From an uncultured Gammaproteobacteria bacterium (GTDB lineage: Bacteria > Patescibacteriota > Patescibacteriia > UBA9934): 64,000 bases of DNA. Positions 54,303 to 60,571 of the stretch are shown in pieces. The stretch spans positions 192,593 through 256,592 of the forward strand of contig CAYFMS010000002.1 of the NCBI GenBank assembly GCA_964344415.1. Reading direction: 5' to 3'. The translations under genes were made by a program, and so were the position numbers. Under the pieces are notes generated by a model. It saw only the letters and a list, made by a program, of their open reading frames with translations. It was not told where the DNA came from and searched no databases. Within the stretch, counting starts at the first letter, position 1, and every line of letters begins with the position of its first letter.

Positions 54303-55196
54303 CTATACTGCTTGATGGTTTGATGAATACTTATCTGTCAGCAAAGTAACAGCACCTTCATTGAAGAAGAAATACAAGTTTCCGTTTGAACGTGTAGAGA
54401 ATACCTTTCCGAGGTACTCCTGTTTATTATCAATCGTGTTGTAGCGTAAACCTCCGGCGTATGAAGAATATTGAGAAGCAATATCCGTACCCTGTTTCTC
54501 TGATTCTGATGCTTTTGACAGCACAATAGCACCAACCTCTCCCGTTAAATCAAAAAGAGATTTAGGAAATCCAGATTTATGGCCGTGATGAGGTGCCACC
54601 AGAATGTCTAAGCCATTTTTCATTGTTCTAATAAAATCCTTGTCATTGGCTGCAAGCCAGTCCCATCCAGCCTGCTCAAGGTCACCACCAAATAGAATAC
54701 GAACGTTTCCATACCTCACGTACCTCAAGATGCTAGAGTTATTTTTCTGTTTATCATTGAGCTCCGAATTGCTCTTAACCTGATGCATTGGGATGAGGAA
54801 GACTCTGTTTTCGTGAAATCCCCAGCCGTCGAACTTAATTGAGGCACCTCGATATCGTAAATCGATATGGTTTTTATATTCGTCATGAATATTTTCACCA
54901 ACATCAAATGATTCATGTCGTCTACGGTGAACGAGGTAAGGCGACAATTTTTCAGAAACCTTTTTCGCATTCTTTACATGGTCATCATCTGGATGGGTAA
55001 CGTGCAGTAGCGTTAGGTCGTACCCATTATAACTTTTCATTTTCAAAAAACTGTCCTTCAAGTGAAGCACTCGGTCTACGGGGCAATCCTTTTCCGCGTT
55101 ACTTCCACAATCAATCATCATGCTATATCCGTTTGGACAAACACATAGATTGCATGCAGCGTTATTTACATCAAAGACAACTAATTTTGCACTCAT
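54303..55196 (-). CDS. Standalone ComEC/Rec2-type metallo-beta-lactamase-fold nuclease domain protein
   Basis: Matches the ComEC C-terminal domain pattern: VFDVNNAACNLCV...MMIDCGS, LLHVTHPDDDHV (HxDxDH), ILFGGDLE and ILVAPHHGHKSG (PHHGS motif). The start is set at internal MSAKL, which gives an ATGA overlap with the upstream membrane-protein gene. Confidence 0.7.
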   Translation of the reverse strand: MSAKLVVFDVNNAACNLCVCPNGYSMMIDCGSNAEKDCPVDRVLHLKDSFLKMKSYNGYDLTLLHVTHPDDDHVKNAKKVSEKLSPYLVHRRRHESFDVGENIHDEYKNHIDLRYRGASIKFDGWGFHENRVFLIPMHQVKSNSELNDKQKNNSSILRYVRYGNVRILFGGDLEQAGWDWLAANDKDFIRTMKNGLDILVAPHHGHKSGFPKSLFDLTGEVGAIVLSKASESEKQGTDIASQYSSYAGGLRYNTIDNKQEYLGKVFSTRSNGNLYFFFNEGAVTLLTDKYSSNHQAV

Positions 55197-55858
55197 ATCT
55201 TTCTCTTTAAATTCAACTGAATAATTTTGTGTACCAATCCTCTTGCAACTCCACGGGCTCTCCAGAGAAAAATTAGTGCTATAGCGAAAGCAATGACGCT
55301 TAGTTCTCGATAATCCTGAGTAAATAAAAGCAAGCCAACAAGCAAGAAGACGAGGAAGATTACGCGACAAAAAAGATACGAAGCGTTCGACTGAACTATT
55401 TCTGAAGTGCTGGAAACCTTGCTATATAGCCTCCAAAATATGCTCTGTGACAAATCGTCAGCCTGCTTTGTATCATCGCCCTTAAAGATGAGAGGAATAT
55501 CTGAATACTCTCGGTCAATCAAAGCTCTTTCGTTTGTATTAAGGTCAAGCAACTTCAACAACTCTTCACGTTTGTAATCACTCTTGAGTACAGGGTTCTG
55601 CTTATATAAAAAGACCTTGGAAGGCCTTCTCATGCGAAAGAAAATATCAACAAAAAATTCAAGGGAGTGGGCAAGTGTTTGTAAAACTTCGCCGGCAATA
55701 AAAGCGGCACAAAAGAATAGGAAAGTATAAAGAAAGTCTAAGTCCTGATTAAAGTACACGGAAAACGTTTCGCTATATAGTGCCAGTGCCACTCCTAGCA
55801 GGAGACCGCCCGGCATAACTCTAATCATTAAGTCTTCAAAACTGAATTTGTCCAACAT
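55193..55858 (-). CDS. Hypothetical membrane protein (221 aa, 2+2 TM), first gene of the island operon
   Basis: Hydrophobic helices at both ends with a charged central region; its stop overlaps the MBL-gene start (ATGA). Confidence 0.4.
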   Translation of the reverse strand: MLDKFSFEDLMIRVMPGGLLLGVALALYSETFSVYFNQDLDFLYTFLFFCAAFIAGEVLQTLAHSLEFFVDIFFRMRRPSKVFLYKQNPVLKSDYKREELLKLLDLNTNERALIDREYSDIPLIFKGDDTKQADDLSQSIFWRLYSKVSSTSEIVQSNASYLFCRVIFLVFLLVGLLLFTQDYRELSVIAFAIALIFLWRARGVARGLVHKIIQLNLKRKI

Positions 55859-55950: not shown

Positions 55951-56099
55951 GTTTATTGTCGCTTTTTTTGTAAAATAAAGTCATGGCACGACCTCCTAGA
56001 ATAGAATATAACGGAGCTCTCTATCATGCAATGTCGCGTGGACTGTCCTACCTCCTTCAAAGTAAAATAAAAACAATCCCTGATGGGATTATTTTTATT

Positions 56100-56265
56100 T
56101 GGCTCTGGGGGTGATATATAGCCTCGCTCTATACAAACCTTTGGTTTGACCGCTCGGCAGGATCCCACCCCAGCATCTGTTCCATAAATACCCAGAACAT
56201 CTGCACAGCCTGACGGCTGTTAAGCCAAAAGAAAACAACCCTGACGGGTTGCATTCTTTTGGCTC
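56100..56265. repeat. 166-bp direct repeat DR2, immediately abutting (6-nt overlap) the tRNA-Asn 3' end
   Basis: Near-identical to DR1. The layout is ...tggctctgggggtg-DR body-ttttggctc | tgggggtgggattcgaaccc (tRNA). Confidence 0.85.
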
Positions 56266-56616
56266 TGGGGGTGGGATTCGAACCCACGACCAATTGGTTA
56301 CACGTAATCCTATAGTTTCCTATAAGCATGGACTATATCATCATCCTTCTCAATGAGTGAGGATGCGAGGCGCTTCGAGTCTTGCGACCCTACTCCATAA
56401 AGGATAGTCTCTGAACCGGCCTTCGCCAAGGCTTCGTCCGACAGGTCTTCCTGCTCGGTCCTTGATGAAGGATTGGCTGCTGATTGCCATATTCTTTCGA
56501 ATGAAGGTTTCCAGCAATTCACCTCGTTTTCATTCCACTGTTTCCAGTGGAAGCTGCGTTAGGCGCTCGATTGAGCTGTGCCACAGCCAACTGCTCTGCC
56601 ACTGAGCTACCCCAGA
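56260..56616 (-). tRNA. tRNA-Asn(GUU) interrupted by a group I intron in the anticodon loop (exons 56584-56616 and 56260-56300)
   Basis: 5' exon TCTGGGGTAGCTCAGTGGCAGAGCAGTTGGCTGT. 3' exon TAACCAATTGGTCGTGGGTTCGAATCCCACCCCCAGAGCCA. The spliced product has a canonical cloverleaf with anticodon loop CUGUUAA and a T-arm GTGGG-TTCGAAT-CCCAC, with CCA encoded. It is close to bacterial tRNA-Asn sequences. Confidence 0.8.
56301..56582 (-). ncRNA. Group I self-splicing intron (282 nt) inserted between anticodon positions 35 and 36 of tRNA-Asn
   Basis: Conserved group I core elements are present. P-like GAAUUGCUGGAAA, Q-like AAUCAGCAGCC, R GUUCAGAGACUA, S AUAUAGUCC. A P2 hairpin has a GAAA tetraloop (CCACUG-GAAA-CAGUGG). 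A P9 hairpin has a GAAA tetraloop (CUUAUAG-GAAA-CUAUAGG). The intron ends in a G (omegaG). The 5' exon ends in U with a candidate IGS GCAGCU. Confidence 0.75.
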
Positions 56617-56858
56617 TTATTATCTCGTATTCGTTTTAGAAACTCTTTTCCGTAGCCCGATTTTAGGTATCTTTCCCTTGCTCGCGCCGAGGGTCTATCA
56701 GTTACCTGTTCGGTGTACAGCAGAGTCCATGGTCGGTAGGCTTTCGTAGAAGAAACCCTACCAGCGTTGTGCTCCGATATTCTACGTTCGATATTTCCTG
56801 AAAAGCCCACATAAATTCTACCATCATGTTGACTTGCAATTGCGTAAACGTGATACAT
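56607..56858 (-). CDS. GIY-YIG nuclease-domain protein (UPF0213/YhbQ-like, 83 aa)
   Basis: YHVYAIASQHDGRIYVGFSGNIERRISEHNAG...KAYRPWTLLYTEQ...ARARERYLKS matches the GIY-YIG (GIY...YVG...R...H...E) YhbQ-type pattern. Its last 10 nt overlap the 5' end of tRNA-Asn. Confidence 0.7.
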   Translation of the reverse strand: MYHVYAIASQHDGRIYVGFSGNIERRISEHNAGRVSSTKAYRPWTLLYTEQVTDRPSARARERYLKSGYGKEFLKRIRDNNLG

Positions 56859-56873
56859 ATTTTGTTAACTGCT

Positions 56874-56894
56874 CCCTGCCTGCCGGCAGGCAGG
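56874..56894. repeat. Perfect GC-rich palindrome ccctgcctgccggcaggcagg(g), copy 1
   Basis: Inverted repeat seen directly in sequence. A second, complete copy lies at 60183-60204. Confidence 0.7.
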
Positions 56895-56914
56895 TGCCAC
56901 TGAGCTACCCCAGA
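56895..56914 (-). repeat. Duplicated 20-nt fragment of the tRNA-Asn 5' end (tgccactgagctaccccaga)
   Basis: Identical to 56597-56616 (tRNA positions 1-20). It lies 280 bp upstream of the real tRNA start, on the far side of the GIY-YIG ORF. Confidence 0.7.
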
Positions 56915-56994
56915 ATTTCAAATTGTGAACATTTTTCAAAAGAACGGTGACGAAATGGTATCATGCATTTTAGTAATCGTCAATAATTTATTCT

Positions 56995-60143: not shown

Positions 60144-60182
60144 ACTCAGCTAATTATACCACCTTCCACCGTCATCTCGAGC

Positions 60183-60204
60183 CCTGCCTGCCGGCAGGCA
60201 GGGA
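60183..60204. repeat. Perfect 22-bp palindrome ccctgcctgccggcaggcaggg, copy 2
   Basis: Identical to the copy next to the tRNA-Asn 5' fragment. It is followed by a member of the cccgccttcgctc/gagctacg repeat module (RC orientation) at 60210-60250. Confidence 0.7.
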
Positions 60205-60342
60205 ATGCGCCTGCACGACGTAGCTCTGAGAGCGAAGGCGGGAGGGGTCTCTAGTTTTTCTTCTTACTTTTCTTTAAAGAAAAGTAAGCAAAAGAACGCC
60301 GCCAGTGCTCGCTTTGTCACATGCATAGAGCGTCATCGCTCG

Positions 60343-60418
60343 GGCAAAACAGAGAGTAGGAATGTCTTTATTTTTCTTAGTGCAATGATGCGTTCATTCC
60401 TATCGGCTGTTTTGCAAT
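60343..60418. other. Long imperfect inverted repeat (~21-nt arms, gcaaaacagagagtaggaatg ... cattcctatcggctgttttgc) in the 430-bp intergenic region
   Basis: Seen in sequence. A second 10-bp-stem palindrome cttacttttc-tttaaa-gaaaagtaag lies at 60262-60287. Confidence 0.4.
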
Positions 60419-60571
60419 TCCTCGCTCCTGCCGCATGCAATGTGACAGTCTCACAGGTGGCGGCAGATTCGTGCAGCGAAATCCTGAGCCTGTCGAAGGA
60501 TCTCTTCAAACCGTTCAGTATCCGACATGACGGTTGCTAATGGATCCCAGCTCGGAGGCCGGAATGGCGAA

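Follow-up and report, generated by a model that had tools for sequence, protein, structure and literature searches.

The stretch of DNA analyzed here, a 64-kb window (64,000 nucleotides of contig CAYFMS010000002.1, from an uncultured bacterium of the Patescibacteriota lineage), contains a gene for a small GIY-YIG nuclease that runs into the 5' end of a tRNA-Asn(GTT) gene. Both belong to a unit composed, in order, of a pseudo-5' tRNA copy carrying a 20-bp palindrome (P), a short spacer, an open reading frame (ORF) of about 80 amino acids (aa) of the UPF0213/SLX1-like type, and an intact tRNA. With moderate confidence, we regard this locus as one copy of a widespread, compact and selfish cassette that is driven by its nuclease and occupies the 5' part of tRNA genes, the tRNA being spared by duplication. 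We take insertion, target duplication, preservation of the tRNA, conservation of the ORF, decay intermediates, and the occurrence of both empty and occupied alleles as established by the comparisons below, and from these we infer cleavage by the nuclease and mobility of the cassette. The parts of the unit in the window, from its upstream end, are as follows.

56955..56983, minus strand: promoter-like site (TTGACG, 17 nucleotides (nt), TG-n-TACCAT), found by consensus scan with 9/12 matches plus an extended -10 TG
56895..56914, minus strand: pseudo-5' copy, part a, equal to tRNA-Asn nt 1-20 (acceptor 5' strand, D-stem, D-loop), a 100% direct repeat of 56597-56616
56875..56894, no strand assigned: palindrome P, CCTGCCTGCCGGCAGGCAGG, a perfect 20-mer cleanly inserted between tRNA nt 20 and 21 of the pseudo-copy
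56867..56874, minus strand: pseudo-5' copy, part b, GAGCAGTT, equal to tRNA-Asn nt 21-28 (3' D-stem strand and start of the anticodon stem)
56859..56866, minus strand: A-rich 8-nt spacer, AACAAAAT, ahead of the start codon, read from the sequence
56607..56858, minus strand: GIY-YIG nuclease ORF of 83 aa, single-domain by Pfam match and UPF0213/SLX1-like by its nearest PDB relatives
56260..56616, minus strand: intact tRNA-Asn(GTT) with encoded CCA (exon 1 56583-56616, group I intron 56301-56582, exon 2 56260-56300)
56235..56252, minus strand: terminator-like hairpin and T-run directly after the tRNA, found by terminator scan, the likely end of the transcription unit

The 83-aa ORF, which a first-pass annotation had read as a YhbQ-type GIY-YIG gene, matched PF01541 over residues 1-71 of 83 (E=7.9e-17, 61.8 bits, cutoff 22.6) with UPF0213 (YhbQ-type) nearest, and it ends 10 nt inside tRNA-Asn as that annotation had stated: the tRNA +1 is at 56616, and the stop codon TAG (56609-56607) is tRNA nt 8-10. 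The sequence TGCCACTGAGCTACCCCAGA is present at 56597-56616 and, 298 bp away, at 56895-56914, and at these two places only; no match to the 20-mer was obtained in 100 shuffles even when three mismatches were allowed. In gene orientation tRNA nt 1-20 read TCTGGGGTAGCTCAGTGGCA, with the exact second copy at 56914-56895. The upstream copy of the first 20 nt had thus been correctly noticed, but the duplication extends past the palindrome by GAGCAGTT to a total of 28 nt; without P, the pseudo-copy is collinear with tRNA-Asn nt 1-28 and identical to it at 28/28 positions. The repeat spacing of 298 bp is made up of P (20), the duplicated segment (28) and a unique insert (250). The palindrome, first described as a 21-bp element preceding the tRNA fragment, is real, but it is a perfect 20-mer plus a flanking C and follows the fragment in gene orientation. 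An AGGGAG Shine-Dalgarno-like motif, made by the 3' end of P together with GAGC, lies 13 nt before the ATG and may act as the ribosome-binding site. From the joined exons 56583-56616 and 56260-56300, ARAGORN called a canonical 75-nt tRNA-Asn(GTT) with encoded CCA; it was blind to the unjoined gene because the group I intron splits it. The promoter-like and terminator-like sites flank the whole unit, and the former, upstream of the pseudo-tRNA copy, is a candidate for the native tRNA promoter that would now drive all of it.

Homologues of the window nuclease with 45-68% identity were found mostly in Patescibacteria. Genomes were scanned for such loci, one genome per species, with a 9-sequence alignment as the query since a 27-sequence alignment was too diverse, so that the genome set is biased toward the KSGYGKEF motif. 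Thirty loci were recovered from Patescibacteria, Sphingobacteriales/Daejeonella (Bacteroidota), Muricauda/Flagellimonas, and Omnitrophota. At each of the 30, a tRNA or pseudo-tRNA (Asn, Lys, Phe, Arg, Leu, Met, Gly, Ile) followed the ORF immediately on the same strand, and in every case the flanking tRNA or pseudo-tRNA carried P-family hairpins. The ORF was followed by a same-strand tRNA at 21 of the 30 loci, and the tRNA began at most 40 nt past the ORF end at 20 of these 21 (nine Asn, with Leu, Lys, Phe, Arg, and Gly), the Met locus lying at +110. Five loci showed the mirrored order of intact tRNA, ORF, and pseudo-tRNA, and the remaining four had intron-containing or uncalled tRNAs or lay at contig ends. 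Gap-tolerant alignment of the genome loci showed the pseudo-copy to be collinear with the neighboring tRNA from about -12..+1 to +19..+45, its break being filled by exact P, by variants of 16-21 nt, by two P in tandem, or by P with another hairpin inside it. P almost invariably lies in the spare copy. At about 30 loci in genomes and at least 120 in metagenomes, the P 20-mer stood at the same tRNA position, and further P-family hairpins were present at tRNA nt 7/8, 9/10, and 12/13, at nt 26/27 in L010, and in a T-loop. A distant homologue in Verrucomicrobiota (L066) had the ORF and a 38-nt 5' duplication and no P, and two other distant homologues had no tRNA at the locus. A role of P as an autoregulatory operator was rejected, because P lies downstream of the ORF in mirrored loci.

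The reciprocal scan of metagenomes, with the pattern GGTA+P+GAGC, returned at least 120 loci, for which the counts below hold among the matches listed. The GIY-YIG ORF, starting 4-53 nt after P+GAGC, was carried by 63 of the 106 P sites (59%) that had enough downstream sequence to be assessed; counted per locus, 59 ORFs were intact and three were full-length in the DNA with stops or frameshifts. Another 40 P sites had no ORF at all, mostly with an intact tRNA 10-340 nt after P. ORF-bearing sites were at tRNA-Asn (27), Lys (11), Phe (8), and Thr (3), and the sites without an intact ORF mainly at Thr (16), Ala (5), Val (4), and Ile (3). The stop codon overlapping the tRNA, as pointed out for the window at first pass, proved to be conserved, falling on tRNA nt 8-10 in 27 of the 49 ORF-bearing loci. 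Pseudo-copies ended at nt 25-42 (median 33) with a median identity to the adjacent tRNA of 100%, all 49 tRNAs called beside the ORFs were of normal length, Lys, Phe, and Thr included, and some contigs carried several ORFs at different tRNAs. A search of the ORF-less spacers with nhmmer for ORF remnants found only the three pseudogenes and one marginal match.

Individual loci also showed the following. ORF-less units consisting of a pseudo-5' tRNA with P, a spacer, and an intact tRNA were seen within L085-L204 (e.g., L116, L132, L104, L110, L142, L089, L136, and L159), where tandem pseudo-copy/P arrays and full-length tRNA genes broken by P alone also occurred. At L010 (2590-3310), the ORF-plus-pseudo-tRNA unit is tandemly doubled after an intact tRNA-Arg(CCT). 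At L013 (3252-3400), the 5' fragment upstream, GCCCCTG, can pair with the 3' fragment downstream, CAGGGGC, whose T-loop carries P, and not with the intact tRNA between them; an incoming ORF-plus-tRNA unit seems to have split a resident gene here. A model in which the cassette brings its own tRNA and leaves 5' and 3' remnants of a split resident gene was rejected as a general one, because a downstream 3' fragment was found only at L013 and in the window. A further hairpin family, CCTGTCTGCCGGCAGGTAGA, occurs in L005, L007, L017, and L019 some 50-100 nt ahead of the ORF; these hairpins have two conserved G.T wobble positions and occur in both orientations, once nested within P, which points to their recognition as single-stranded DNA. 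In L072 and L075-L077 (1432-2637, minus strand), a gene for a large serine recombinase lies directly downstream of the cassette-bearing tRNA-Phe and overlaps it, and this tRNA-Phe probably doubles as the integration site of another element.

Retrieval of the same locus from other species via MutS homologues provided empty and occupied alleles in Flagellimonas/Muricauda, where the cassette lies downstream of mutS between tRNA-Gly(GCC) and tRNA-Leu(TAA). In F. zhangzhouensis and M. oceani (L207, L208) this interval has neither cassette nor P and consists of tRNA-Gly, a terminator, AAGTCCT, and tRNA-Leu, while seven relatives, F. ruestringensis among them, are occupied. The occupied alleles duplicate AAGTCCT together with tRNA-Leu nt 1-25, which is single in the empty alleles; the repeat is therefore a duplication of local target DNA, and the ORF stop TAA is completed by the duplicated leader. 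Judged by these alleles, the Flagellimonas/Muricauda cassette is shown to be a true insertion with local target duplication. The first-pass proposal of a GIY-YIG cassette inserted at the tRNA 5' boundary with target duplication is borne out by these empty sites and by the 30 genome loci, with the amendment that this is no simple target-site duplication, as the palindrome sits inside the left copy. All seven occupied alleles share one type of upstream terminator and both empty alleles another, and in a mutS distance tree without support values the empty M. oceani is nested among occupied species. Loss of the cassette by simple deletion would not bring back the terminator of the empty alleles, and the pattern therefore fits transfer with flanking co-conversion or an old polymorphism. 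Occupied and unoccupied alleles of one site thus coexist among these relatives, as expected of a homing element, on another branch than the lineage of the window. When the orthologous locus of the window was sought via the neighboring 219-aa protein, no relative was found in metagenomes.

The nuclease consists of the catalytic domain only, with no residues outside it and no extra DNA-binding module. Among 27 aligned homologues, Y5, Y16, and G18 were near-invariant and R26, H30, N31, and E62 invariant. The AlphaFold2 (AF2) prediction had a mean local confidence (pLDDT) of 95.7, with strands at residues 2-9, 15-20, and 44-52 and helices at 23-31, 55-66, and 68-82, and Foldseek matched the model to 1ZG2 and SLX1 with a probability of 1.0 and to I-TevI with 0.77. 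The nearest sequences in the PDB were 1YWL (2.9e-12), 1ZG2 (7.9e-11), and SLX1 (7e-9), followed by marginal matches to I-TevI (7e-3) and UvrC (0.64). The match to TIGR01453, the group I intron endonuclease family, was below threshold (17.9 bits, cutoff 56). An exact look-up found no identical protein on record, the 64-kb window held no second GIY-YIG ORF, and the PADLOC and PHROGs libraries gave no match for the nuclease. Synonymous sites vary among the nuclease ORFs and serine is encoded by both TCN and AGY codons, by which the protein is judged to evolve under purifying selection. Since third codon positions vary freely, the conservation of the 3' end of the ORF lies at the protein level, and a hidden DNA-level signal there was ruled out. 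Branched or hairpin DNA cleavage of the UPF0213/SLX1 kind is predicted for this nuclease by analogy. To our knowledge, no tRNA-embedded context, duplication, or palindrome has been described for UPF0213/SLX1 proteins.

In the reading we favor, three additions would have turned an ordinary tRNA gene into the cassette. A local target, starting a few nt before tRNA +1 and reaching about nt 25-45 (nt 1-28 in the window), would be duplicated; a short leader and the ~80-aa nuclease ORF, which has no stop codon of its own and would end in the regenerated tRNA (U8-A9-G10 in the window), would come to lie between the repeats; and a fixed 20-bp P would enter the D-loop of the non-functional upstream copy with no loss or duplication. 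Thanks to the complete downstream copy, the essential tRNA remains functional, the insertion being rendered harmless by duplication and not by splicing. The unit would be transcribed from the original tRNA promoter (site 56983-56955) through the terminator at 56252-56235, and RNase P would free the tRNA from the pseudo-5'/P/ORF/tRNA transcript, whereby the processed mRNA would lose its stop codon and nuclease expression would be limited. The nuclease would break or nick tRNA DNA, or P, and recombinational repair would copy the cassette into empty tRNA genes, in which the two tRNA-derived repeats could serve as portable homology arms. After fixation the ORF would decay, leaving ORF-less pseudo-5'/P scars; the series among the listed matches comprises the three frameshifted or stop-bearing full-length ORFs and the 40 ORF-less sites.

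Several points weigh against this reading. Persistence at one locus while the protein diverged, both between the window and its closest relative (68%) and within the genus Muricauda, also fits a retained host function. The regenerated tRNA, being identical to the empty target, would stay cleavable if the nuclease recognizes tRNA DNA, and no known transposase accounts for a duplication whose length varies (25-50 bp). Among metagenome loci whose flanks are homologous, no mixture of ORF-present and ORF-absent states was seen. Near-identical ORFs in different contexts were not found either, on which ground very recent horizontal transfer was rejected. The ORF-less sites, nearly without ORF remnants and mostly at other tRNA types (Thr, Ala, Val, Ile), raise the possibility that palindrome and duplication were the primary event and the ORF a passenger. 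Finally, both large locus sets were picked by exact motifs (KSGYGKEF; exact P), by which the apparent uniformity is inflated.

The palindrome also occurs on its own. The 64-kb window holds only two copies, and P was present at 35 loci on viral contigs, just one of which had the ORF. In the viral contigs L055 (2239-2330) and L032, P occupies the variable-loop position of a phage tRNA-Met, which ARAGORN called as a 92-nt tRNA despite the insertion; there P may be tolerated as a long extra arm. Another 20-nt hairpin, at the -1/+1 junction of tRNA-Leu, varies in presence among close Muricauda relatives, independently in the pseudo and intact copies. This presence and absence, together with P on viral contigs and as a solitary copy, indicates that P-family hairpins behave as separately mobile units. 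The first-pass caution that the 20-nt duplication could belong to a generic repeat applies to the palindrome, given its viral copies and the second site in the window, and not to the 20-nt repeat itself, which is truly tRNA-derived. A search of the searchable literature for the P sequence as text, with subscription-only journals outside its reach, matched no paper.

These data bear most directly on an account that we judge rather unlikely, in which P is the primary element, a mobile mini-palindrome resembling a repetitive extragenic palindrome (REP) or a miniature inverted-repeat transposable element (MITE), with loops and junctions of tRNA DNA as its insertion sites. The GIY-YIG protein would mobilize or process P as the REP-associated tyrosine transposase (RAYT) does with REP, the ORF would be optional, and the duplication would be a by-product, since an insertion into an essential tRNA survives only if a partial tandem duplication regenerates the gene. 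P is indeed commoner than the ORF, on viral contigs and as the solitary copy at 60183, and 43 of the 106 P-in-D-loop sites listed had no intact ORF, 40 having none, mostly at other tRNA types. The extra hairpins at nt 7/8, 9/10, 12/13, and 26/27 and in the T-loop, some of them tandem, nested, or in either orientation, the P in the variable-loop position of phage tRNA-Met, and the variable hairpin at the tRNA-Leu junction of Muricauda speak for it as well, as does the fact that SLX1 enzymes, the nearest structural relatives, cut branched and hairpin DNA. On the other hand, Verrucomicrobiota L066 has duplication and ORF with no P, so that duplication needs no P, and two copies in 64 kb are unlike dispersed REPs. 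There is no known way for a palindrome insertion to yield a one-sided direct duplication of 25-50 bp, and we know of no GIY-YIG enzyme that transposes DNA.

Slightly less probable still is a domesticated nuclease, that is, an old insertion or duplication that has become a stable, vertically inherited operon in which nuclease and tRNA are co-expressed, possibly for clearing hairpins or R-loops at highly transcribed tRNA genes or for homogenizing repeats. Long-term purifying selection on the protein, retention at one locus across the genus Muricauda, and the lack of near-identical copies in different contexts agree with this. The closest relative of the window nuclease (Uhrbacteria, L080-84; 68% aa identity) has a pseudo-copy that ends at the same nucleotide as that of the window despite this divergence, and in either locus the pseudo-copy and its tRNA carry the same base at tRNA position 3, T in the window and G in L080. 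This match within each locus indicates gene conversion, constraint, or re-creation, and the identity of pseudo-copy and neighboring tRNA would likewise reflect ongoing gene conversion or constraint. A stable operon is difficult to reconcile, however, with patchy presence, empty sites in close relatives, and an occupied allele off the mutS tree, with a spread over at least ten tRNA types and several phyla, with multiple copies per contig, or with how commonly the ORF is pseudogenized or lost; moreover, no match in the defense-system and phage-family libraries pointed to a known host role.

The first-pass annotation had linked the nuclease to the neighboring group I intron, proposing a free-standing homing endonuclease of the intron locus. 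Under this scheme, the nuclease would cut intron-less tRNA-Asn at the intron site and the intron would shield the resident copy. The intron (56301-56582, minus strand) splits tRNA-Asn(GTT) between anticodon nt 35 and 36 and was matched by Rfam RF00028 at 56309-56592 on the minus strand (83.9 bits, gathering score 50); U is the last base of the 5' exon and G that of the intron, and once joined the exons adopt a tRNA-Asn fold. The window ORF does abut this intron-containing gene, blastn with the window intron found related introns in tRNA-Asn of at least two other cassette loci, L009 (~540 nt) and L020, and the pseudo-copy usually ends in the anticodon arm, near tRNA intron sites. Rfam reported no intron at L009, L014, or L020. 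However, the closest relative stands beside an intron-less tRNA-Asn whose exons are 92-97% identical to those of the window, most cassettes flank intron-less tRNAs (Asn, Lys, Phe, Thr, Leu, and Arg), and the 49 of 49 normal-length tRNAs among the listed matches include Lys, Phe, and Thr. The 83-aa protein, moreover, lacks a DNA-binding domain and falls well short of the cutoff for the intron-endonuclease family (17.9 against 56 bits). The link is largely refuted by this distribution and seems to us very improbable; judged by these loci, the group I intron has invaded the tRNA-Asn gene independently, as a second element, and is not a link to the nuclease.

Two further features lie outside the unit.

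56098..56113, minus strand: 16-nt copy of the tRNA 3' end, an exact repeat of 56258-56273, with its own terminator-like hairpin at 56075-56090
60183..60202, no strand assigned: second copy of P, an exact match, solitary and intergenic, with no nuclease gene nearby

The 16-nt copy, for which L013 alone offers a comparable downstream fragment, may derive from a displaced tRNA 3' end or from an att site or island, and its membership in the cassette is uncertain. It adjoins a plus-strand ORF starting MARPPRIEYNGALYHAMSRG (region 55983-56114 / 56049-56116) that ends after about 20 residues; the ORF start at 55983-56042 resembles the N-terminus of an IS200/RAYT-type Y1 transposase, and a family search gave no match. 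Just downstream of tRNA-Asn, the 54303-55858 region (minus strand) encodes a metallo-β-lactamase (MBL)-fold protein (PADLOC PDC-M48B, E=6e-22; weak match to a 6A-MBL anti-phage enzyme) whose gene overlaps that of a 221-aa membrane protein (Csx27-like, E=8e-6), and the two are a candidate defense pair. The second P lies in a 428-bp intergenic stretch (60144-60571), directly ahead of a GC-rich imperfect palindrome; the stretch also contains a long inverted repeat (about 60300-60480) and gave no match to a tRNA or an Rfam family. Although tRNA genes are classical integration sites and the 3'-end copy, the candidate defense genes, and the truncated transposase-like ORF start lie nearby, a remnant of integrase-mediated island integration or of random tandem tRNA duplication, with ORF, repeat, and palindrome side by side merely by chance, is hardly credible, as there is no integrase or recombinase in or beside the cassette, the 5' part rather than the 3' part is duplicated, and the identical three-part architecture stands at more than 150 independent loci.

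The favored reading of a nuclease-driven cassette can be set against known systems. The SegB gene of phage T4 lies in the T4 tRNA gene cluster, and SegA-G are free-standing GIY-YIG homing endonucleases (PMC2330249). Like the Seg genes, the cassette has a GIY-YIG gene that lies outside any intron and next to tRNAs. Seg genes reportedly spread by break repair with co-conversion of flanking markers, and in Muricauda the joint inheritance of upstream terminator and occupied allele is similar to such co-conversion. The Seg proteins have about 200-250 aa and a C-terminal DNA-binding domain, whereas the window protein has 83 aa and the catalytic domain only, nearer UPF0213/SLX1 than I-TevI; Seg genes, furthermore, are not known to have a target duplication, a stop codon borrowed from a tRNA, or a palindrome, and the cassette has all three. 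With UPF0213 (EF2693, 1YWL; BH0048, 1ZG2) and SLX1, its best matches in sequence and fold, the protein shares a single GIY-YIG domain of about 80-100 aa. SLX1 requires SLX4 and its RING/PHD domain, and the window protein, unlike SLX1, has no RING/PHD domain. Tyrosine-integrase islands and prophages at tRNA sites likewise keep the essential tRNA at one junction and a displaced partial copy at the other. Such elements are kilobases long, duplicate the 3' part of the tRNA, and encode an integrase; the cassette, in contrast, duplicates the 5' part, has an insert of ~250 bp and no recombinase, and holds P in the displaced copy. In the collaborative homing of cyanophage psbA and F-CphI, a free-standing endonuclease acts together with a group I intron. 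Here, too, a free-standing endonuclease adjoins an intron-containing gene and an insertion that interrupts the target, P or intron, could give immunity, but the intron association fails across cassette loci. Among small mobile palindromes are the bacterial REP/RAYT and Rickettsia palindromic elements, and GC-rich palindromes of Neurospora mitochondria reportedly flank tRNA genes, going by the title of a cited reference. The GC clusters of yeast mitochondria are small mobile GC-rich palindromes as well (PMC4478555). P is similarly short and GC-rich in AT-richer DNA, with clean presence and absence, nesting, tandems, and a concentration at tRNA genes. Unlike REP/RAYT and GC clusters, however, P has one and the same sequence in different bacterial phyla and defined loop positions in tRNA pseudo-copies, and unlike REP/RAYT it appears to be coupled to a GIY-YIG gene and not to a Y1 transposase.

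A bolder proposal, which we put forward only tentatively, is that the cassette represents an unrecognized class of mobile element that invades essential tRNA genes, regenerates them via a 25-50-bp 5' duplication, where introns and inteins rely on splicing and integrases bring a 3' replacement, and is spread by a structure-specific GIY-YIG nuclease of ~80 aa. The nuclease would recognize not a DNA sequence but P or the shape that tRNA DNA adopts when extruded as a cloverleaf or four-way junction, which would explain its reach over many tRNA types and several phyla. P would be mobile in its own right, travelling along with the cassette and both marking and inactivating the spare copy, and since cutting off the tRNA leaves an mRNA with no stop codon, the borrowed stop would couple nuclease expression to processing by RNase P. 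No description of the tRNA/palindrome/nuclease arrangement was found in the searchable literature, subscription-only papers lying outside its reach.

If this picture is true, target duplication would give selfish DNA a third means of residing in an essential gene without destroying it, beside splicing and integrase-borne replacement, and tRNA genes would be the shared landing pad of these three strategies. The large and functionally orphan UPF0213/YhbQ branch gains a concrete genomic role, and a 20-bp palindrome is identified by its identity across phyla and its defined positions in tRNA pseudo-copies. The cassette also accounts for partial 5' tRNA fragments that confuse tRNA annotation, above all in Patescibacteria. 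Flagellimonas/Muricauda are culturable and present both allele states, which makes the hypothesis directly testable, and a minimal nuclease that finds tRNA genes by their structure would be of interest for engineering safe-harbor insertion.

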